Below are positions 27,174 to 45,411 of a stretch of 64,000 nt of DNA, one piece after another. The position numbers and the translations under genes were made by a program. This DNA comes from Candidatus Aminicenantes bacterium (GTDB taxonomy: Bacteria; Acidobacteriota; Aminicenantia; Aminicenantales; JAFGBC01). Where the stretch lies: contig OY969696.1 in the NCBI GenBank assembly GCA_963702005.1, positions 4,096,001 through 4,160,000 on the forward strand, in the 5' to 3' direction. The stretch's first letter is position 1; every line of letters begins with the position of its first letter. The notes below the pieces were generated by a model. It ran no database searches and was not told the DNA's origin. It worked only from the letters and a program-made list of their open reading frames with translations.

Positions 27174-29969
27174 TCATCTAATAAATTTAAACCAATTGAA
27201 ATTATTGTCTTCGTTCCACTCCGTCACGGTGTGAGCTGTATCCACCCACGCATAGATATAATAGGTTACTCCGGGAGTAAAAATCCCAAGAGCGTATGTA
27301 GCCGACAGGACAGGAGAGGATTCTCCCGCAGCCAAGGCAGGGACATCAAGTACTGAATCAATATTCCCTGAAAGGAATAGAATCTTTGAGCTGGCTGCCG
27401 CGGCGGGCCCGTTATTGGTCACTACAGCATCTAACTGGACCAGATCCATAAACATGATCCTCACTCTCTTGTAACTGAACGATGACACCACCAAGTCCGG
27501 AAGCGGCCATACTCTCCAGCCATAGACAGACGCTAAGTTGTTGGTTTCGTCCGACTCCGCAACTTCATTATTGACGTCCGCTTTCGCACTGAGAGAATAT
27601 ATTCCGGCCCACAATTGCCCTACCTCATGCGTCACGGTCGAAGTCTGGCCAGCTGCAAGCACGGGAATGCTATGCATCGTGGTATAACCAGCCGCTAACA
27701 AACTCATGGTTGAGGCGCCAGCGGTTGAGACCCCCACATTCTGGACCACGACGGTAACCGAGTTGTAGTCCGCCATCGTCGGGGTCGCCGGGCTGTGCGT
27801 CAGGCTATGAATGATTAGGTCCGGCGGCCTGACCACCACGAAGGGGTGCGTCATTCCATTGTTCAATTCGTTCGACTCGGCTACTGCGTTGTTGACGTCC
27901 GCCTGCGCCGTTACGGCATAACTCGCAGCCGCCATGGTCCCCATAGTCCGAGCCACGGCCGAGCGAGCGCCCGCCGCAAGGGCGGGAATAACGTGGGTCG
28001 TAGGAGCTGACTCCCAGTCTCCCTTCAGGCTCAGGGTCGAGGCCCCGGCCTGTGCCGTGCCCACATTCTTAACCACGGCGGTCACCGTGATCGTATCCAA
28101 TGTCGTCGGGCTCGCCGGGGAGGATCCCAAGCTGAACACGATCAGATCCGGCGGGGCGGCAACCAGGAAGCTATCCTCCCGGGAGTTGTTCGTTTCGCGC
28201 GACTCCGTGATAACGTTGTCATCGTCAGCCCACGCCGTTGCGACATAGGTCGCGGCCGCCAAAGGCCCCACGGTCCGAGTTACGGCCGCGGTCGCGCCCA
28301 CCGCAAGCGATGGAATATCATGAGTCGTATCAGCTGAGGCGATCCTCAGACGTAGGGTTGAGGCGCCGGCCTGAGCCGCGCCCACATTCTTAACCACGGC
28401 GGTCACCGTGATCGAATTCAAGGTCGTCGGGCTCGTCGGGCTGTGCGTCACGCTGTCCACGATCAGGTCTGGTAGTGCGGCGCTGGTGATTTGGAATGGC
28501 GGGCTGTCCTCATAGACCTTGCCGTCCGTCGAGTTCGAGATTCGAACCATGTAATCCGTTCCGTCCGCCAGGCCGGCCGGGACCATCCATGAATATGCCC
28601 CCGCGCCGGCGCTCGTTTCCGCGACGATCGGTTTGATCAGAGTGGACCCCTTATACAAATCTATTTTCACGTTATCGATAGCCGGGACATCCGTCGAGGA
28701 CGCCACATGGATTTGACCGGCGAGGCCCTCGGGGATCTTCCATTTGATCTTCTCCGTCGTGCCCATGACCCAGACCGAGGAGGCGTTCGGTAAAATTATG
28801 GAGATCGGACTCATATCCGGCTTCTTATGCATGATGTAAATTTCATTGTTGCCCGGGGTCAGATCCTGCCAGACGACGAAGATTTGTGAGCCCCCGACCC
28901 CCAGGAATTGGCCGCGGGAAGTGCTGGAATTATTCGTGAGCCTTTCGATTTCCCGCCAGGCGCCTCCCCCGTTCGTCGACTGCCGATGGTAGATCTCCAT
29001 GTTTCCCGGCGTGTCGTCGTTCCAGACGACATCGAGGCTTGAGTCATTGACGGCCAGGGCCGGAGCCTCGGAGCGGCCTGAATTATTGGTGAGCCTCAAA
29101 CCGGGTTGCCAGGTGGCTCCTTGATCGGCGGATTCCCGGAAATAGATCTCAGGATTCCCCGGCGTGGCGTCGCTCCAGGCGATATAGACCGTTGAGCCCA
29201 TGGCGGCGACGGCCGGAGAATTGGAGGAACCCGAATTCGTGGTGAGTCTCTTGGGAGCTTCCCAGGCGGCGCCTCCGCTCGTCGATTTCCTGAAGTAGAT
29301 CTCGTTGTTTCCGGCCGTGTTCTCTTCCCAGGCGACATAGACGCCCGAGTCGGCGGCGGCGACGGCCGGGTTTTTGGCGTCGGCAGACCCCGTATTCCCG
29401 GAGAGCGTTTTAGCGGCCTGCCAACCGGCTCCTCGGTCGGCGGATTTCGTCAAGGCGACCCCGCAATTTCCTCCCTTGGCGCTCTCGTCATTCTGCCAGG
29501 CCACATAGATATTCGCGCCGACGACGGCGATGGCCGGCTTTCCCGCTTTCGCCGTCTTATTTTCCGTCAGGGCGCGTGCGGCCTTCCAGTGATTTCCTCC
29601 ATCCTGGGACTTCATGAAATAGATCTGGGCGATCCCCGGCGTCGAATCCTCCCAGACGACATAGACGTTCAAGCCGTCGACGGCTATCGCCGGAGACTCG
29701 GAGTCACCGACATTGGTGGTGAGTCTTTGCGCCGCTTGCCAGCCGACTCCCCCATCGGCCGATTTCCGGAAGTAGATTTCGCCATTTCCCGGCGTATCGT
29801 CCGTCCATACGACGTAGACCTCCGAGCCGCTGACCGCGATTTTGGGATTCCCCGAGTCGCCCGAGGTCGTCGTAAGCCTCTTGGTAATCCAGCCCGCTCC
29901 ATAGGCAATCCCCGAGGACAGGAGCAGGACAATCAGGCCCCCCATGAGGATCATTCTCAACGGCTTCAT
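27174..29969 (-). CDS. Secreted surface protein: BNR/Asp-box propeller + Ig-like domain + CARDB repeats (paralogue 1)
   Basis: Signal peptide; repeated YVVW.D.TPGN.EIYFRKS.DGG..W; four PDL(I/V)..S...V.N.G...A.AS...ES.E.NN CARDB-type units. Confidence 0.85.
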   Translation of the reverse strand: MKPLRMILMGGLIVLLLSSGIAYGAGWITKRLTTTSGDSGNPKIAVSGSEVYVVWTDDTPGNGEIYFRKSADGGVGWQAAQRLTTNVGDSESPAIAVDGLNVYVVWEDSTPGIAQIYFMKSQDGGNHWKAARALTENKTAKAGKPAIAVVGANIYVAWQNDESAKGGNCGVALTKSADRGAGWQAAKTLSGNTGSADAKNPAVAAADSGVYVAWEENTAGNNEIYFRKSTSGGAAWEAPKRLTTNSGSSNSPAVAAMGSTVYIAWSDATPGNPEIYFRESADQGATWQPGLRLTNNSGRSEAPALAVNDSSLDVVWNDDTPGNMEIYHRQSTNGGGAWREIERLTNNSSTSRGQFLGVGGSQIFVVWQDLTPGNNEIYIMHKKPDMSPISIILPNASSVWVMGTTEKIKWKIPEGLAGQIHVASSTDVPAIDNVKIDLYKGSTLIKPIVAETSAGAGAYSWMVPAGLADGTDYMVRISNSTDGKVYEDSPPFQITSAALPDLIVDSVTHSPTSPTTLNSITVTAVVKNVGAAQAGASTLRLRIASADTTHDIPSLAVGATAAVTRTVGPLAAATYVATAWADDDNVITESRETNNSREDSFLVAAPPDLIVFSLGSSPASPTTLDTITVTAVVKNVGTAQAGASTLSLKGDWESAPTTHVIPALAAGARSAVARTMGTMAAASYAVTAQADVNNAVAESNELNNGMTHPFVVVRPPDLIIHSLTHSPATPTMADYNSVTVVVQNVGVSTAGASTMSLLAAGYTTMHSIPVLAAGQTSTVTHEVGQLWAGIYSLSAKADVNNEVAESDETNNLASVYGWRVWPLPDLVVSSFSYKRVRIMFMDLVQLDAVVTNNGPAAAASSKILFLSGNIDSVLDVPALAAGESSPVLSATYALGIFTPGVTYYIYAWVDTAHTVTEWNEDNNFNWFKFIR

Positions 29970-30382: not shown

Positions 30383-33178
30383 TCATCTGATATATGTCAT
30401 TGTGGCCGTATTGTTAGCATAGTTCCATTCGAGCACTCCGTGCGAATACAAGGTGAAAGTCCAAGTTCCGGCCTCCATTTGGGAAAGAAGCCTAACATTA
30501 TAATAAAAGACATAGGACTCGCCTGCCGCCAAGGGATCGATCATATAGCTTCCCCCCCATCCCGATCCTCCAGGGGAATAGACCATCCAATCGAGCCATG
30601 ACGAGGGGGCGTTCCCCGGCCCGTTATTGGTTACCACCCGTTTTACTCGGAAATACTTTAATCCAGGGATACCGATTATATCGTAGCTCAGCGATACCAC
30701 CAAGTCCGGAGACGGCGATACGATCCAGCCGTAGAGAATGTCTGTATTGTTGATTTCGTTCGACTCCGCAACTACGTTAGCGACGTCCGCTTTCGCTGAG
30801 ATCGAGTACGTGCCGGCCCACAACTGCCCTACGTTCCAATTCACGGTCGACGTTGCGCCAGCCGCGAGGGCGGGGACGCTATGCGATGTGGTAATGCCAG
30901 CTACACTTAAACTCAAAGTTGAGGCACCGGCGGTTGACCCCCCCGCATTCTTGACCACGGCGGTGACCGTGTTCTTATCCGCCATCGTCGCGTTCGCCGG
31001 GCTGTGCGTCAGGCTTTGAATAATTAAATCCGGCGGCACGATCACTAAGAAGCTGTCGGTCTTCACGTTGTTCGTCTCATTCGATTCGGCCACCGCGCCG
31101 TTGACGTCCGCCTGCGCCGTAACGACATAACTCGCGGCCGCCAAAGGCCCCACGGTCCGAGTTACGGTCGAGGTAGCGCCCACCGCAAGCGCGGGAATAG
31201 CGTGGGTCGTAGGAGTTGACTCCCAGCCGCCCTTCAGGCTCAGGGTCGAGGCCCCGGCCTGAGCCGCGCCCACATTCTTAACCACGGCGGTCACCGTGAT
31301 CGTATTCAGCGTCGTCGGACTCGCCGGACTGTGCGTCAAGCTATACACGATCAGGTCCGGCCCGGTCACCACGAAGCTGTCCTCCAGGGAGTTGTTCGTC
31401 TCGCGCGACTCCGCGATAACGTTGTTATCGTCAGCCCACGCCGTTGCGACATAGGTCGCGGCCGCCAAAGACCCCACGGTCCGAGTCACGGTCGCGGTCG
31501 CGCCCACCGCAAGCGCGGGAATAGCGTGGGTCGTGTCAGCTGAGGCGACCCTCAGACGTAGGGTTGAGGCGCCGGCCTGAGCCGCACCCACATTCTTAAC
31601 CACGGCGGTCACCGTGATCGTATTCAAGTTCGTCGGGTTCGCCGGGCTGTGCGTCAGGCTGTACACGATCAGGTCCGGGAGTGCGGCGGTGGCGATTTGG
31701 AATGGCGGGCTGTCCTCATAGACCTTGCCGTCCGTCGAGCTCGAGATTCGAACCATGTAATCCGTTCCGTCCGCCAGGCCGGCCGGGACCATCCATGAAT
31801 ATGCCCCCGCGCCGGCGCTAGTTTCCGCGACGATCGGTTTGATCAGAGTGGACCCCTTATACAAATCTATTTTCACTTTATCGATTTTGAGAAGATCCGC
31901 CAAAGACGCGGCCCCCGCCGTTTGACCGGCGATGCCCTCGGGGATCTGCCATTTGATCTTCTCCGTCGTGCCCATGACCCAGACCGAGGAGGCGTTCGGT
32001 AAAATTATGGAGATCGGACTCATATCCGGCTTCTTATGCATGATGTAAATTTCATTGTTGCCCGGGGTCAGGTCCTGCCAGACAACGAAGATTTGTGAGC
32101 CCCCGACCCCCAGGGATTGGCCGCAGGACGCGCCCGAATTATTCGTGAGCCTCTCGATTTCCCGCCAGGCGCCTCCCCCGTTCGTCGATTGCCGATGGGT
32201 GATCTCGAAATTTCCCGGCGTGTCGTCGTTCCAGACGACATCGAGGCTTGAGTCATTGACGGCCAGGGCCGGAGCCTCGGAGCGGCCTGAATTATTGGTG
32301 AGCCTCAAACCGGACTGCCAGGTGGCTCCTTGATCGGCGGATTTCCGGAAATAGATCTCAGGATTCCCGGGTGTCGTATCGCTCCAGGCGAGATAGACCG
32401 TTGAGCCCATGGCGGCGACGGCCGGAGAATTGGAGGAACCCGAATTCGTGGTGAGTCTTACGGAAGCTTGCCAAACAGCGCCTCCGTTCGTCGATTTCCT
32501 GAGGTAGATCTCGTAGTTACCGGACGTGTTCTCCTCCCAGACGACATAGACGCCCGAGTCGGCGGCGGCGACGGCCGGATTCCGGGCGTCGGCCGACCCC
32601 GAATTTCCGGATAGCGTTTTAGCGGCCTGCCAACCGACTCCTCGGTCGGCGGATTTCGTCAAGGCGATCCAGCAATTTCCTCCCTTGGCGCTATCGTCAT
32701 TATGCCAGGCCACATAGAGAGTCGCGCCGACGACGGCGATGGCCGGCTTTCCCGCTTTCGCCGTCTTGTTATTCGTCAGGGCCCGGGCGGCCTTCCAGTG
32801 GTTTCCTCCATCCTCGGATTTCATGAAATAGATCTGGGCGATCCCCGGCGTCGCATCCTCCCAGACGACATAGACGTTCGAGCCGTCGACGGCGATCGCC
32901 GGAGACTCGGAGTCACCGGCATTGGTGGTCAGTCTTTGGGTGATTTGCCAGGCGACTCCTCCATCGATCGATTTCCGGAAGTAGATTTCGCCATTTCCCG
33001 GCGTATCGTCCGTCCAGACGACATAGACCGCCGAGCCGTCGACGGCGATCTTCGGACTCCCCGAGTCGCCCGAGGTCGTCGTAAGCCTCGTAGTCATCCA
33101 GCCCGCTCCATAGGCAGTCCCCGAGGACAGGAGCAGAACGATCAGGCCCGCCATGAGGATCATTCTGAATGGTTTCAT
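30383..33178 (-). CDS. Secreted surface protein: BNR/Asp-box propeller + Ig-like domain + CARDB repeats (paralogue 2)
   Basis: Closely similar to 27174-29969 except for the last domain. Confidence 0.85.
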   Translation of the reverse strand: MKPFRMILMAGLIVLLLSSGTAYGAGWMTTRLTTTSGDSGSPKIAVDGSAVYVVWTDDTPGNGEIYFRKSIDGGVAWQITQRLTTNAGDSESPAIAVDGSNVYVVWEDATPGIAQIYFMKSEDGGNHWKAARALTNNKTAKAGKPAIAVVGATLYVAWHNDDSAKGGNCWIALTKSADRGVGWQAAKTLSGNSGSADARNPAVAAADSGVYVVWEENTSGNYEIYLRKSTNGGAVWQASVRLTTNSGSSNSPAVAAMGSTVYLAWSDTTPGNPEIYFRKSADQGATWQSGLRLTNNSGRSEAPALAVNDSSLDVVWNDDTPGNFEITHRQSTNGGGAWREIERLTNNSGASCGQSLGVGGSQIFVVWQDLTPGNNEIYIMHKKPDMSPISIILPNASSVWVMGTTEKIKWQIPEGIAGQTAGAASLADLLKIDKVKIDLYKGSTLIKPIVAETSAGAGAYSWMVPAGLADGTDYMVRISSSTDGKVYEDSPPFQIATAALPDLIVYSLTHSPANPTNLNTITVTAVVKNVGAAQAGASTLRLRVASADTTHAIPALAVGATATVTRTVGSLAAATYVATAWADDNNVIAESRETNNSLEDSFVVTGPDLIVYSLTHSPASPTTLNTITVTAVVKNVGAAQAGASTLSLKGGWESTPTTHAIPALAVGATSTVTRTVGPLAAASYVVTAQADVNGAVAESNETNNVKTDSFLVIVPPDLIIQSLTHSPANATMADKNTVTAVVKNAGGSTAGASTLSLSVAGITTSHSVPALAAGATSTVNWNVGQLWAGTYSISAKADVANVVAESNEINNTDILYGWIVSPSPDLVVSLSYDIIGIPGLKYFRVKRVVTNNGPGNAPSSWLDWMVYSPGGSGWGGSYMIDPLAAGESYVFYYNVRLLSQMEAGTWTFTLYSHGVLEWNYANNTATMTYIR

Positions 33179-38540: not shown

Positions 38541-39909
38541 TGTTGGGAAAAGTTGAAAAGTAGACACTTTAAACTTCAAAAGTGGACACGTGGAAAAGCC
38601 TTAATCGGGAACTTAGTGGAGGCGACCATTGAGTTGTGCCACCAGACTCGGATCTCCACGGTCTCATTGGCGAGGTTAGGAACCAGGTGCAGGTCGACCT
38701 CTTCGCCCGGGGGGACGTGCTTAATCGGGATTTCCTGTTTGTAGAAGGAGAGGCGTCGATAGGGGTTGACCACCCGCGTTTCCTTGAGGCAGAAGACATC
38801 TTTGGAGGCGTGGTAGGGTTTAGGAACGAGGAAGGGGCGGAAGAGGGACTGGCCGGCCCTGCGAGCCTTCGCAAAGCGATAATCGGGGATCTCGCCGGTC
38901 GTCGCGTGGACTTGGAGTCGATTATAGCGATGCATCTCGTCTTGGAGGACCTGGCGGACCTCCTCGAGGGTGGAGAGCTTTTCGAGGGCCGCCGTCCGCA
39001 CGATCCGATCCTGAAGCCAGCGATAGGAGCGCTCGATCTTGCCCTTGGCCTGGGGCGAGAGAGCATAGATGATCTCCACGCCCAGACTCTTCAGGACCTG
39101 CTTCCAGTAGGGATCGACGTCATCGGTCCTGAGGTTCAACTTCTTCCAAAAACTGTCCCGGTTCTGGACGAAGCGGAAGACGCGCAGGGAGTCCACGTAA
39201 TACTGTAAAGGTAAGCCATAGCGACAGATCAGGGCCTCAGCCGCCTGGATATGGGCCCAGGTGGTCTCGTGGGGAACCAGGTCGGCATACAAGAGCTTGC
39301 GGCTGTAGTCGTCCAGGGAGCTGATCAGGACCCATTGTTCCTGGGCGTAAGGAGACCAGCGGTGATGAGAGGCGTCGTGCTGGATCAGGGCGCCGATCGC
39401 GGTGGTCAGGACCTGCCGGTCGTGGAGCTTCTTCGGAGGATGTCCCTTGTAACATCCTAACGCCTTGGCCCGGCTAATGATCGTCGGGACCGAGACCTTG
39501 ATTCCCCGCTTGAGGAGTCGGTCCCGGATGGCGGAGTAGTTGTAGGAGGTGATCGGGAGGGTCCGGTCTTCGATGAGAGCCTTTTCGGCGATCAGCGCCC
39601 CCTTCATCTCCCCTTCGGCCTGGAGAGGCAGCTTCGCGGGGGACCGCCGGTGATAAGCGATCGAGAACGCCGCAGGATCCTCCCTATAGAGCTTGAGAAG
39701 GGCAAAGAACCGGGCCTTTCCGATGCCGAGGGCCTCTTCGACAACCGCGCGGTCCAGGAGGCCCTCCGTGTACCCCCTGAAGAGATTCCGGACATGCTCG
39801 GTCGTGAACCGTCTGTGAACCTGTTCCATACATTCCTCCTTCTTGAGGAATGTAACCCAGGTGTCCACTTTTCATCTTTAAACTGTCCACTTTTCAACTT
39901 TAAATAACA
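38541..39909 (-). mobile_element. IS1202-group (ISNCY) insertion sequence, apparently complete
   Basis: TGT...ACA ends; ~49-bp imperfect TIRs with repeated AAAAGT(G/A)GACA boxes; flanking direct repeat (C/A)GGGTCAAGCCAACC at 38526-38540 and 39910-39924. Confidence 0.85.
38576..39829 (-). CDS. DDE transposase (rve/IS1202-like)
   Basis: LIQHDASHH.W, DDYSR, YVD, SPQAKGKIER....LQDR; AGGAGG RBS before MEQVHRR. Confidence 0.9.
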   Translation of the reverse strand: MEQVHRRFTTEHVRNLFRGYTEGLLDRAVVEEALGIGKARFFALLKLYREDPAAFSIAYHRRSPAKLPLQAEGEMKGALIAEKALIEDRTLPITSYNYSAIRDRLLKRGIKVSVPTIISRAKALGCYKGHPPKKLHDRQVLTTAIGALIQHDASHHRWSPYAQEQWVLISSLDDYSRKLLYADLVPHETTWAHIQAAEALICRYGLPLQYYVDSLRVFRFVQNRDSFWKKLNLRTDDVDPYWKQVLKSLGVEIIYALSPQAKGKIERSYRWLQDRIVRTAALEKLSTLEEVRQVLQDEMHRYNRLQVHATTGEIPDYRFAKARRAGQSLFRPFLVPKPYHASKDVFCLKETRVVNPYRRLSFYKQEIPIKHVPPGEEVDLHLVPNLANETVEIRVWWHNSMVASTKFPIKAFPRVHF

Positions 39910-39953: not shown

Positions 39954-40039
39954 TCCGCACGGCGGCGAGATGGGATAATCGATACGGAAATGCGCCCGCA
40001 GCCGGCTCAGAAAAAAATAAGATACCAAAGGAGATCGGA

Positions 40040-42025
40040 ATGAAGGGGACGCTTTATTTTTCCGTGGTCGCGGCCGGGCTTCTTCTTGTCGCGGCGGCCG
40101 CCCCCGCGGCCAAGACCGATTCCCAAGACGCCGCGGCCGTCTGGACCGAGCTCGGGCCGATGGGGGGCAATATCGTCGCGCTCGCCCGCCATACGAAAGC
40201 CCCCGCCAAGATCTACGCTCTGACCGGGAGCTCCCCCGGCCAATTCTTCCGGTCCGCCGACAACGGGACAAGTTGGAAGCGCATGGCCATCTTCCAGGAC
40301 ACGGCCTATGACATCGCGGTTGATCCCAATAACGGTGACATCGTCTATGTCCTTTCTTACAGTGCCCTATACAAGTCCACGAACACGGGCGATTCGTTCA
40401 AGGAAATACGCTTCCCGGAAGGCATGCACGGCGCGGGACGTATGGCCGTTCGCCCCAACGATCCTAACAACCTCTACGTCGCCGGGACCTTCCGGGCCAA
40501 CAACAAAGAGTGTCTGGCGTTTCTCAAGTCCGCGGACGGAGGACAGACCTGGACGGCGATAAAATTCGACACGGGAGCGACCTATTCAACCGCCGCCGGG
40601 ATCGCCGTCTCGTCCAAGAATCCCAACACCGTTTATTTTTGCGGACATTATTATGACGGAAAATCGCGATACTATAGCCGCGTTTATAGGTCAAGAAACG
40701 GAGGAAACGCCTGGGACAACATCACGGGGCCCATCCTGAATCAAAACAACAAAACTCCCTCCGGCCTGGCCGTCGACCCCACGAATGCGGACCGCGTCTG
40801 GGTGGCCTATAACGACGGTGTACTCCGGAGCACGAACGGGGGAACGACCTGGCTCAAACAAAACAGCTCGTCTTTCTATGGCGGCCCCGTTGCCATCGAC
40901 CCCAACCAGGTTAACACCCTCTACGCGCCGAGCGAGAGCCTCAACGACCCTGGCGTTTACAAGAGCACGGACGGCGGAATCAACTGGAAAAAATACCCTG
41001 AGGGCGTCTACGGCTACGCCAACACGATTATCATCAAAGACAACACGATCCAGGTCGGAACATCGGCCGGGATCTTCCGGAGCAAGAACGGCGGCGGTTC
41101 CTACCAAGCGGCCCACCGCGGCATCAAGGCGACCTGGATTACGACCTTCGCGCTTTCCCCGAGCTCCCCGGGGACGATCTACGCCGAGGCCTGTGACTAT
41201 ACGTATTTCAAGTCGTCAGACGGCGGAGCGAGCTGGATGAAGGGGACCGATTTTTATCGCTGCCACAGCATCATGAATTTCGCCGTCCACCCCGGAAACC
41301 CGAACACGGTCCTCATCCTGGCCGGGGGCTGATATGACGACGACGTCTACAGGTCTGTAGACGGCGGCCAGCACATCACGAACGTCCTCCACAAGAACCT
41401 CGGCGTACTTGCCGGCGATCCCCGGAACGGAAACCGCCTGATCGCGGCCGGCCAGGTCGTGGACGGAACGGCCTCCATGGGCGCCTACATCAGCTTGGAC
41501 GGCGGGTTGACCTGGTCTCCGGTCAAGATCCGGAGTGACGCTAACAGCATGGCCACCGTCGCGGCCTTCGACCCGAAAAACAAAAAAATCCTATATGTCG
41601 GCGGCCAGGACGGCGTCAGCCGGGCCTGCTTGTACAAGAGCACGAACGACGGCGCCTCCTGGACTCAGCTCGCCATCCCGGCCGGCTTCGACATCCTGTG
41701 TCTGGCCGTCGACCCCAAAGCGTCCGGCACCCTCTACTTCGGCGGCGCCAACGGAGTCTTCAAGAGCACGAACGGAGGGTCGAGCTGGACCGAGCTGACC
41801 GGGGTTTACAACGCGCAATCCATGGCCGTCAATCCCAAGAACGGGGACGAGGTTTTTGTCGGTAACTGGTCCGGCGTTTTTTACAGCAAGGACCAGGGTG
41901 CGACCTGGAAGGACCTCAGCCAGGGCATGCCCGTGAAGTCCACGAACTGGGTCGCGGTCCACCCGACGAGCCGAATCATCTACGCCGGGACCTTCAACGG
42001 CGGGCTCCTCAAGCGGAATTTCTAA
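40040..42025 (+). CDS. Secreted BNR/Asp-box beta-propeller protein, 661 aa, with candidate selenocysteine at codon 431 (TGA 41330-41332)
   Basis: ORFs 40040-41332 and 41459-42025 are in one frame, separated only by TGA; the intervening codons keep the repeat (AGG-U-YDDDVYRSVDGG); SECIS-like hairpin follows. Confidence 0.8.
41344..41363 (+). promoter_or_regulatory. Bacterial SECIS-like hairpin
   Basis: UGA + 11 nt + CGUCUAC-AGGUCU-GUAGACG; spacing and apex match the E. coli fdhF SECIS. Confidence 0.75.
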
Positions 42026-44191: not shown

Positions 44192-44713
44192 CCGCGTCTT
44201 TTCATTTCCAGTCTCCATTGAGCAGGAAGCCCGCCCAGAAGTAGGGATGGGAAATGGTCCGGTCGGGATTACGGATGAACTCGATCTGAGCGAATTGAAG
44301 AGCCCGATCCTTGCTCAGTCCGGCCTTAAGGTAAGAATAAAACCGCGTCATCAGTTCCGAGGTGGCGACGTCCGCCACTTTCCATTGTGAGGCTAAGACC
44401 GTGCGAGCCCCGGCATACTGAAAGGCCCTTGTCAGGCCTATCAATCCTTCGCCGCCCATTTCTTTTCCCAGCCCTGTCTCGCAGGCGGAAAGCGTCACCA
44501 AGTCCGCGTCGATCCGCATCCTTTCGAATACTTCCCAAGCCTGGAGGATTCCGTTGTCCCGACCTTCTATTACGGCCGGGGGAATTGACAAGGCCAGTCC
44601 GGAATTAAGGGGGAACAACTCATCCAGGAAGCCATGGCAGGCGAAATGGATATAACGAACGCCCTTGCCGAGTGCTTTTGCCTTTTCTTCCGTCGCTTCT
44701 TCGCCCAGATAGA
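44169..44713. repeat. 545-bp direct repeat, left copy (pairs with 57341-57885)
   Basis: Colinear at constant offset 13172 with scattered substitutions. Confidence 0.92.
44202..44713 (-). pseudogene. Duplicated 3' fragment of the CHAT protease gene
   Basis: YLGEEATEE...HFACHG...LSACETG...GFLLNGDWK, nearly identical to the end of 57374-60754; homology stops abruptly at 44713. Confidence 0.88.
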
Positions 44714-45411
44714 AGGCCTCAGAGGAGAATGCGACCAAGCTGGAAGCACAACTGAAAACCACTCAGTTGCGAGCCCAGCAAACAGAACAGCTCACAAAAA
44801 CCCAGGATAAAACGTTAGCCATATTAGTAAAAGTGCTGTCTCACTCTCAACTCCAGGCGCTTCGCGCAGATGCTGAAGTAGCAGTCGCATTAGACCGTCT
44901 TAAGGAGCCCATAAACATTAATTGATCGGCGCTCCTAATTCGACAAGCGCCTGACGTGTATTTTTCACCCTAATCCTGCTAGCGGAATGCGGAATGAAGC
45001 TGCATTCAGGAGGATAAGCTTTTTGCCTCCTTGGATAGGCCCCACGATTTGACAGCTCAGACGGCTAACTAAAGAGAGTTATGTGGCCCCGAAATTGCAA
45101 ACGTCCGTTGACGCGGCCCGACTTCTCCATTTACGATGATTATGAGTTCGCGATCTTCATCGGCGGTCGCCAGCCGGGCGATAAAGCCGTCCTCGAAATC
45201 GTCCTGGGCGCGCTCGACGGGCCGATCACGGTGGGAGATGTGACCGTCGTCTCCCGGACGGCCGGCCTGAACCCGCCGAAACGTTTTAAGATCGAGGTGA
45301 CCTTCGGCGACTGGGAACGCGCCCGCTCGACGGTGTATCGATCCGAATCCCAAAGCCCAAACACGGGCTGAGCGGCCATCACGGATATCCGGGGACCCGC
45401 CCCGGCTCTGG

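Follow-up and report, generated by a model that had tools for sequence, protein, structure and literature searches.

Does a single in-frame TGA between two annotated open reading frames (ORFs) end a protein, or does it encode selenocysteine (Sec)? The question is raised by a locus at positions 40040-42025 (plus strand) of a 64,000-nucleotide stretch of DNA from a Candidatus Aminicenantes bacterium. That whole stretch is called the window here and corresponds to G000:C1:4096001-4160000, where G000 is the organism's own genome, a single contig (C1) of 4.31 Mb with 60% G+C. Gene callers mis-annotate selenoproteins, which to our knowledge are rare and nearly always thioredoxin-fold or metal-centre oxidoreductases. 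The sequence comparisons presented below make it very likely that the two annotated ORFs are one gene encoding a 661-residue selenoprotein.

An open frame across a single TGA

The upstream ORF of 430 amino acids (40040-41332, plus strand) terminates with the TGA at 41330-41332, and the frame is then open to a TAA at 42023-42025. An initial annotation of this DNA had described two ORFs in one frame, split by a single TGA at codon 431. Re-reading of the window confirmed this description, and translation of the window ORFs with the TGA read as U gave 661 residues with U at position 431 (U431). The 42 open codons reported beyond the TGA were also recovered: the residues from U onward, UYDDDVYRSVDGG, continue the Asp-box repeat, and the first in-frame start is GTG 41459, 42 codons downstream. 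Read as one unit, the putative selenoprotein gene has 661 codons (40040-42025, plus strand, UGA-431 as Sec), is homologous to paralogues and orthologues across the TGA over residues 1-661, and is preceded by a Shine-Dalgarno-like AAGGAG, read from the sequence at 40028-40033 (plus strand), 6 nt upstream of ATG 40040.

Were the TGA a true stop, the locus would instead produce a truncated propeller of 430 residues, its tail would be either dead or translated separately into 188 residues, and the hairpin that follows the TGA would be an Asp-box by-product. Gene callers do end the protein at this codon, the window protein and its orthologues being filed as 430-residue entries, and GTG 41459 offers a possible start for the downstream ORF. 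However, inspection of the sequence found no Shine-Dalgarno-like sequence ahead of GTG 41459 and no signal peptide in the tail, in agreement with the initial annotation, which had the downstream ORF lacking both a ribosome-binding site and a signal peptide of its own. In addition, the 230 codons beyond the TGA are conserved in frame in every member of the family described below. With the further evidence from fold and codon choice given in later sections, we regard termination at this codon as very improbable.

An assembly error does not account for the TGA: contigs from runs X1 and X3, which derive from two studies of wetland metagenomes, each span 41200-41500 unbroken and have the codon unaltered. 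One of these two runs may itself be the source of the assembly. The sole difference across 41200-41500 is an A>G change at window position 41370 (Gln444 to Arg), found in contigs of X3 and X4, and R or K at residue 444 also occurs in close metagenome relatives.

Recurrence of the TGA across a protein family

Paralogues were collected by a protein search through whole genomes with stops read through and were then extracted from the genome. The organism's own genome contains 14 of them, each with exactly one TGA, all at one alignment column and with 33-44% identity to the window protein; the motif around U in these proteins is L-x-G-G-U-G-x-D-D-(V/I)-Y-R-S-V-D-G-G. A TGA at the identical column was found in 10 homologues from 6 other genomes, which belong to 4 families of the same order. 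For a check that the initial annotation had proposed, namely whether homologues carry Cys or a UGA with its hairpin at position 431, the outcome was that the UGA and hairpin are shared at this column and that a few relatives (P0007, P0008 and G000 C1:2127103) have Cys there.

When 185,579 species-representative GTDB genomes were scanned with a DNA pattern consisting of the TGA and the hairpin core, 9 stretches matched. Wherever the genome record of a hit has an informative name, it is a "Candidatus Aminicenantes" metagenome-assembled genome; two others carry only the generic name "uncultured." The same pattern recovered 62 stretches with 66 matches in JGI metagenomes. Every one of the 75 pattern matches places the TGA in frame within a member of the same propeller family, and the downstream 230 codons stay in frame throughout. 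A relaxed pattern matched 13 of the 246 genomes of the order, with 13 copies in the organism's own genome and 5 in its congener, and a reversed control pattern gave one match in total. Orthologues with 86-89% identity all appear in public protein sets as proteins of 430 residues, a length that indicates a cut at the same TGA.

These counts bear on the idea that the TGA reflects a nonsense mutation, a pseudogene or a sequencing error in one assembly. Defective copies do exist in the family: one homologue in genome G016 has 2 TGAs and no hairpin, and a neighbouring paralogue, G000:C1:756153-758166, is truly frameshifted, with its N-terminal part at 757327-758166 and its C-terminal part, which retains the TGA and hairpin, at 756153-757259. 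The latter, at the edge of the array linked to the Sec machinery described below, is probably a frameshifted pseudogene. Against a lesion at the window locus stand the recurrence of the TGA (14 paralogues, 6 other genomes, 75/75 pattern matches), its persistence in two independent runs, and orthologues at 86-89% identity that stop at the same residue. The 33-44% protein identity among the copies excludes a single recently duplicated pseudogene. The chance that such a lesion accounts for the TGA is negligible.

Several further pattern matches have a TGA followed by an AGGUCY loop on a mismatched stem (A.A mismatch, TCTAC...GAAGA). They lie at G059:C66:6136-6177, G067:C1:397305-397341, G075:C118:6683-6715, G086:C57:3-35, G086:C639:1448-1480 and G127:C315:7555-7591, and mismatched-stem matches in G047, G059, G067, G075, G086 and G127 were left out of the family counts. 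Judged from sequence, they may represent a divergent variant of the element or another gene family.

A conserved hairpin downstream of the UGA

The initial annotation had placed a hairpin exactly 11 nt past the UGA, and it was found there, at 41344-41363 (plus strand), within the V-Y-R-S-V-D of the next Asp-box. The hairpin, CGUCUAC-AGGUCU-GUAGACG, has a stem (CGUCUAC/GUAGACG) of 7 bp, or 8 bp when the A-U pair that closes a GGUC tetraloop is counted. In isolation it folds at -9.6 kcal/mol (z -3.98), with 0/200 shuffles as good. It is present after the TGA in 14 paralogues, 10 homologues and 75 pattern-found copies, and the UGA-to-stem spacing is 11, 14 or 17 nt in 42, 19 and 4, respectively, of 65 distinct contexts.

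Pairing was evaluated in the 24 homology-found copies, which were chosen by protein homology and hence not by their stem. In this set, 98.8% of stem cells are paired. Pair 34-51 is free of mismatches (17 copies have G-C, 7 have A-U), and at pair 38-47 A-U occurs in 22 copies and U-A in 2. The covariation score was attained by 0/500 shuffles, and sliding the 3' arm abolished pairing. In the 65 distinct pattern-found contexts, the pair just beyond the fixed core is G-C in 44, A-U in 20 and A.C in 1. The switch from G-C to A-U couples a Val/Ile change (GTC/ATC) on one arm to a synonymous GAC/GAT change on the other, and since a synonymous change covaries with the opposite arm, protein selection does not explain it.

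Codon choice within the hairpin is equally distinctive. The Ser codon is TCT in 12/12 cases, compared with 0/61 across the remaining Asp-boxes of these proteins; the Arg codon is AGG in 12/12, versus 5/28 Arg codons elsewhere; and the Val codon is GTA in 10/12. The Y-R-S-V-D peptide is not kept in paralogues that have no TGA. These comparisons indicate that the hairpin is kept by selection at the RNA level. Codon bias and covariation rule out the hairpin as a mere by-product of the Asp-box peptide, and the departure of its TCT, AGG and GTA codons from other Asp-boxes, with a synonymous GAC/GAT position that covaries with the other arm, is likewise at odds with a true stop.

The upper stem of the Sec insertion sequence (SECIS) of Escherichia coli fdhF contains and needs a bulged U. 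The 11-nt spacing and AGGUCU apex of the present hairpin are presumably equal to those of fdhF. As in bacterial SECIS elements (bSECIS), the hairpin lies in coding sequence right after the UGA and has a small apical loop, GGUC, closed by A-U; it differs from them as a single short element inside an Asp-box repeat (VYRSVD) with three in-frame spacings. The published bSECIS model, as set out in PMC13188914, specifies a loop of 3-9 nt with a G at its first or second position, a stem of 4-16 bp, a UGA-to-loop distance of 16-37 nt, and a minimum free energy (MFE) of -7.5 kcal/mol or lower. With a loop of 4-6 nt that has G first or second, a stem of 7-8 bp, 18 nt from UGA to loop and an MFE of -9.6 kcal/mol, the hairpin falls within all four constraints as given there. 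The comparison with a SECIS model that had been suggested thus yielded a hairpin compatible with the published one.

Selenocysteine machinery and its linkage to the family

A search for the sel machinery, also suggested in the initial annotation, located selA, selB, selD and tRNA-Sec in the genome. They form one operon (C1:765.4-770.1 kb) with selA at C1:765433-766842, selD at 766858-768063 (no TGA) and selB at 768205-769998, closed by tRNA-Sec at 770011-770102 with anticodon TCA. On one side of the operon lie three intact TGA-bearing paralogues and the frameshifted copy (756-765 kb), and on the other lie two long paralogues of 821 and 830 amino acids (772-783 kb), so that five intact TGA-bearing paralogues and one broken copy occur within about 12 kb of the operon ends. 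In two other genomes, G058 and G147, selA and a TGA-bearing homologue are 5-11 kb apart on one contig. SelA was detected in 109 of the 246 genomes of the order and in 7/7 genomes with a verified TGA form.

FdhA and SelD are the only other candidate selenoproteins that were individually checked in the organism's own genome; no match to FdhA reached the family cut-off there, and none had a TGA. Two broader screens of this genome were not informative: a codon-usage score around all in-frame TGAs (12,034 candidates, whole genome) did not separate the 14 known sites from background, and a within-genome Sec/Cys homology screen gave 318 matches, mostly off-frame matches between repeated genes. Elsewhere in the genome, a 460-residue protein at G000:C1 ~461980-463362, minus strand (L002:1117-2499), has SelB winged-helix domains 2 and 3 (PF09106, PF09107) and no EF-Tu GTPase domain. 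From its domain content, it looks like a stand-alone SECIS-binding module, distinct from the operon's full-length SelB.

The UGA might also be recoded, but not as Sec: a near-cognate tRNA (Trp, Cys or Arg) could read through it, stimulated by the hairpin, or the codon could be reassigned lineage-wide. As a further alternative, the site could act mainly as a selenium-dependent switch between truncated and full-length products. Such possibilities gain some ground from the many residues that non-TGA relatives tolerate at this column and, for a switch, from the general inefficiency of Sec decoding, given which both products may exist. They are opposed by a hairpin whose geometry and loop are those of a SelB-binding SECIS, by a sel operon located among the paralogues, and by the presence of SelA in all seven verified carriers. 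General reassignment of UGA was rejected, as numerous normal ORFs in this genome terminate with TGA, and so do 6 of the 14 TGA-bearing paralogues. Overall, these alternatives are improbable, and Sec insertion is the reading carried forward below.

Predicted fold of the read-through product and geometry of the putative Sec site

The window protein matches Sortilin-Vps10 (1e-41) and BNR in Pfam. It also scores 209.5 bits against NCBIfam NF045728, "F510_1955 family glycosylhydrolase" (cut-off 175), in 6 partial stretches of the 246-position model, a pattern that marks this hit as repeat driven. None of NF045728, Sortilin-Vps10, BNR and PSII_BNR (Ycf48) is described as a Sec-containing family, in which respect the window protein differs from them all. 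A family profile of 53 members, whose alignment was built from 11 read-through references and 41 database proteins, was compared with the PDB; among solved structures, its nearest relatives are GH74 xyloglucanases (E 1e-54 to 1e-37).

The initial annotation had proposed a 661-residue propeller, and AlphaFold2 folds the read-through product as one unit of this kind (mean pLDDT 94.5, pTM 0.91), with a low-confidence linker at residues 20-31 as the only disordered part. Foldseek aligned the entire model with GH74 structures (E 8e-30 to 1e-25, TMq 0.62-0.68, identity 16-20%), and on the basis of this match the model is assigned, with high confidence, to the GH74-like tandem seven-bladed Asp-box propellers. 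The predicted N-terminal propeller comprises approximately residues 35-345 (40143-41074, plus strand; AlphaFold2, Foldseek to GH74, profile versus PDB) and the C-terminal one approximately residues 346-661 (41075-42022, plus strand; AlphaFold2, Foldseek). It is the second blade of the latter that holds the TGA, and a true stop would therefore cut through the second blade of a confidently folding seven-bladed propeller.

The N-terminus is signal-peptide-like over approximately residues 1-24, MKGTLYFSVVAAGLLLVAAAAPAA (40040-40111, plus strand), as judged from the sequence and from a helix at residues 2-19 in the model. A crude signal-peptide regular expression is passed by 39 of 46 non-redundant family members, and the precursor is probably exported. 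Many members have C-terminal extensions beyond the double propeller that resemble Flg_new_2 or InlB B-repeats, e.g., L125:2371-4833 (821 amino acids) and L089:3582-7601 (1340 amino acids), and a hydrophobic C-terminal tail is visible in the L034 and L070 translations. These extensions and tails suggest attachment to the cell surface.

In the model, DSSP assigns the strands of the Sec blade to residues 411-416, 424-428, 434-439 and 447-452, which puts U431 (UGA-431 at 41330-41332, plus strand, at the column shared by paralogues, homologues and pattern-found copies) in the loop between strands 2 and 3. According to PMC2716378, Asp-boxes occupy the 3-4 loop, and the active site of Asp-box glycosidases is on the other face. 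With U431 in the 2-3 loop and the Asp-boxes on the opposite face, U431 is placed on the active-site face. The candidate Sec partner is Cys408 (codon TGC at 41261-41263, plus strand), located in the loop leading into strand 1 of the Sec431 blade, three residues ahead of that strand; from the register of the 1-2 hairpin (416 opposite 424), Cys408 is predicted to stand opposite residue 432, beside U431.

Cys385, Cys408 and U431 occur at 23-residue intervals in the window protein, as the initial annotation had reported. As a triad of the family, only part of this arrangement held: Cys408 has a counterpart in 33-34 of the 46 non-redundant members, and Cys385 is not a family feature (see below). A Cys is found 23-26 residues ahead of U in 34/46 members, most of the others have Cys at -29 and/or +24/+25, and 45/46 have a Cys within 30 residues of U.

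Evolution of the putative Sec site and evidence against the assignment

A maximum-likelihood tree was calculated from 69 rows, 46 with Sec and 23 without (quick search, midpoint root). Non-Sec forms are scattered within a Sec-dominated clade, where well-supported branches force at least 10 state changes, and the Cys forms P0007 and G000 C1:2127103 directly adjoin Sec forms; P0008, the third protein with Cys at the Sec column, is likewise placed among or beside them. This topology fits an early gain of Sec followed by repeated loss.

Several observations weigh against the assignment of the locus as a selenoprotein gene with a redox-active Sec. First, of 16 non-Sec members within the Sec clade, 3 have Cys and 13 have D, S, A, Y, P, V, N or a gap. 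Such residues are atypical for selenoproteins, and the initial annotation had counted homologues with non-Cys residues at this position, with no conserved hairpin, among the outcomes that would refute the assignment. After loss of Sec, the site appears usually to have been abandoned and not swapped for Cys, the feature that most sets this family apart from known selenoproteins. Second, the hairpin is not in every respect a canonical element. Its fold in an 81-nt context is no better than shuffles (z -0.49), an unexceptional value that would also suit a true stop; its stem is perfect, lacking the bulged U of the E. coli fdhF SECIS; and an Rfam search of 41250-41450 matched no SECIS or other family. 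Third, with respect to the redox site, Cys385 is retained in only 3/46 members, one member (C1:1221154) has no Cys in the 60 residues before or the 40 after U, and the proximity of Cys408 and U431 is deduced from strand register in a model. Finally, the window copy has neither thioredoxin nor sel genes as neighbours.

Gene neighbourhoods and a possible redox function

Neighbours of this kind do accompany other members of the family. Between the 821- and 830-residue paralogues near the sel operon (G000:C1:772368-782771; L125:2371-12771) lie four genes, which encode a TlpA-like thioredoxin (WATWCVPC) fused to DUF6029, a CarboxypepD_reg-TlpA-like protein (ADWCGPC), a Fer4_5 membrane polyferredoxin and a third TlpA-like protein (TlpA3). 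This thioredoxin/polyferredoxin cluster occurs once in the organism's own genome, and its genes recur at 45-90% identity beside family members in other organisms, both in genomes and on metagenome contigs. Among 81 family loci, TlpA3 was found at 20, TlpA-DUF6029 at 20, CarbReg-TlpA at 11 and Fer4_5 at 11, compared with SelA at 3, SelD at 2 and SelB at 4. For pattern-found loci of at least 6 kb, a thioredoxin or polyferredoxin match was present in 11/30.

The initial annotation had proposed a Se/S redox or metal site, which stays putative. Because TlpA-like thioredoxins and a polyferredoxin are encoded next to two long paralogue lineages in a conserved cluster, a Se/S redox site is probable, although the case that these gene neighbourhoods make for a thiol/selenol redox role of the family is circumstantial. 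That Sec431 and Cys408 form the redox pair, and that electrons follow the route implied by the cluster, is a tentative proposal that we infer from model and neighbourhood and would put at somewhat below even odds.

The surroundings of the window copy are of a different type. Downstream are genes for a TAT-signal Gfo/Idh/MocA oxidoreductase and a xylose-isomerase-like barrel. Just upstream is a 430-residue ORF (38576-39868, minus strand) with no Pfam match at E 1e-4; our impression only is that it is transposase- or integrase-like, which, if correct, would fit the window copy as a dispersed paralogue. Farther away, two 931-residue paralogues (27174-29969 and 30383-33178, minus strand) contain BNR_2, a Kre9/KNH-like Ig domain and several CARDB domains and have no in-frame TGA. 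A 186-residue ORF at 44202-44762 (minus strand) matches the C-terminal part only (122-289) of the CHAT domain and may be a fragment.

Discussion

The evidence strongly favours a genuine selenoprotein gene at this locus and, with it, a large family, not previously catalogued, of exported selenoproteins with a beta-propeller fold in uncultured Aminicenantes of sediments. Among known proteins, the closest in architecture are the GH74 xyloglucanases and OXG-RCBH (PDB 5fkq, 6p2o, 2ebs, 5jwz, 4lgn and 2cn2), in which a single chain of about 650-750 residues likewise forms two seven-bladed Asp-box propellers in tandem, an architecture described in PMC2716378. The window protein is, however, only 16-20% identical to GH74. 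Whether aligned by sequence or by profile, it was offset from the PDB chains by whole blades, giving no reliable register for the two GH74 catalytic aspartates, which line the inter-domain cleft, one per propeller. No GH74 protein with Sec is present in Table 1 of PMC13188914, and none was found by literature searches.

That table, published in 2026, covers 119 prokaryotic selenoprotein families and subfamilies, none of which is a propeller, BNR, Sortilin or glycoside-hydrolase family. The terms BNR, propeller, sortilin, sialidase and glycos- are absent from the main texts of PMC13188914, deep-Sep (PMC12013277) and BSepDB (PMC13326102), whose supplementary tables were not covered and might list the family. 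A full-text literature search that combined selenoprotein or selenocysteine with propeller-type family names, GH74 or Aminicenantes returned nothing relevant. The statement in the initial annotation that this family is not among the known selenoproteins is therefore borne out by its absence from the 2026 catalogue. The envelope selenoproteins that the table does contain include the FCYXU-type TonB-dependent receptor, the GSU2204-family outer-membrane barrel, the ExtKL cytochrome, DsbA/DsbG-like proteins and thiol:disulfide interchange proteins. Like these catalogued extracytoplasmic and envelope selenoproteins, many of which are tied to thiol/disulfide or metal chemistry, the proteins described here are exported, as far as their N-termini indicate, and have one Sec. 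They differ in having a beta-propeller fold, a G-G-U-G-x-D-D motif with a Cys about 23 residues upstream in place of CxxU or UxxC, and 14 copies in one genome. Recoding here follows the mechanism already known from bacteria; the novelty lies in the protein family, with its fold, location and copy number, in the linkage to the sel operon, and in a SECIS written into a repeat motif.

In the mechanism that we propose, SelB carrying Sec-tRNA(Sec) would bind the hairpin while the UGA is in the ribosomal A site, Sec would be inserted at position 431, and translation would continue for 230 codons. The exported precursor would fold into a GH74-like pair of seven-bladed propellers, in which Sec431 and Cys408 would form a redox-active selenol/selenenylsulfide site. 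In the 821- and 830-residue lineages and their relatives, this site would be serviced by the adjacent periplasmic TlpA-like thioredoxins and the membrane polyferredoxin, and the window copy would be a dispersed short paralogue of this long-paralogue redox system.

If this scheme is extended to its full reach, Aminicenantes would possess an unrecognised extracytoplasmic selenium redox system with propellers as terminal catalysts on an extracellular substrate, an idea that we consider doubtful as a whole. Were it true, candidate substrates would be sulfur or polysulfide, a metalloid, a peroxide or an oxidised polymer, and electrons would arrive via the membrane polyferredoxin, the soluble TlpA-like thioredoxins and the thioredoxin that has an outer-membrane-barrel-like domain as its fusion partner. 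In that case the family may be a principal reason for retention of the Sec machinery, as the sel operon lies amid its genes and this genome has 14 copies but no Sec-type FdhA or SelD.

As a selenoprotein family, these proteins would place Sec on a scaffold where it is uncatalogued, an exported GH74-like double beta-propeller, and add a family to the prokaryotic selenoproteome. Their recognition would also correct a systematic truncation in public annotation, in which orthologues appear as 430-residue proteins. Its minimal SECIS, built from the repeat's own Asp-box codons, occurs in over 60 different contexts with three allowed spacings, so that the family would constitute a natural data set on SECIS sequence. 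For the organisms themselves, it would point to extracellular selenium-dependent chemistry in a widespread uncultured lineage of sediments and wetlands.

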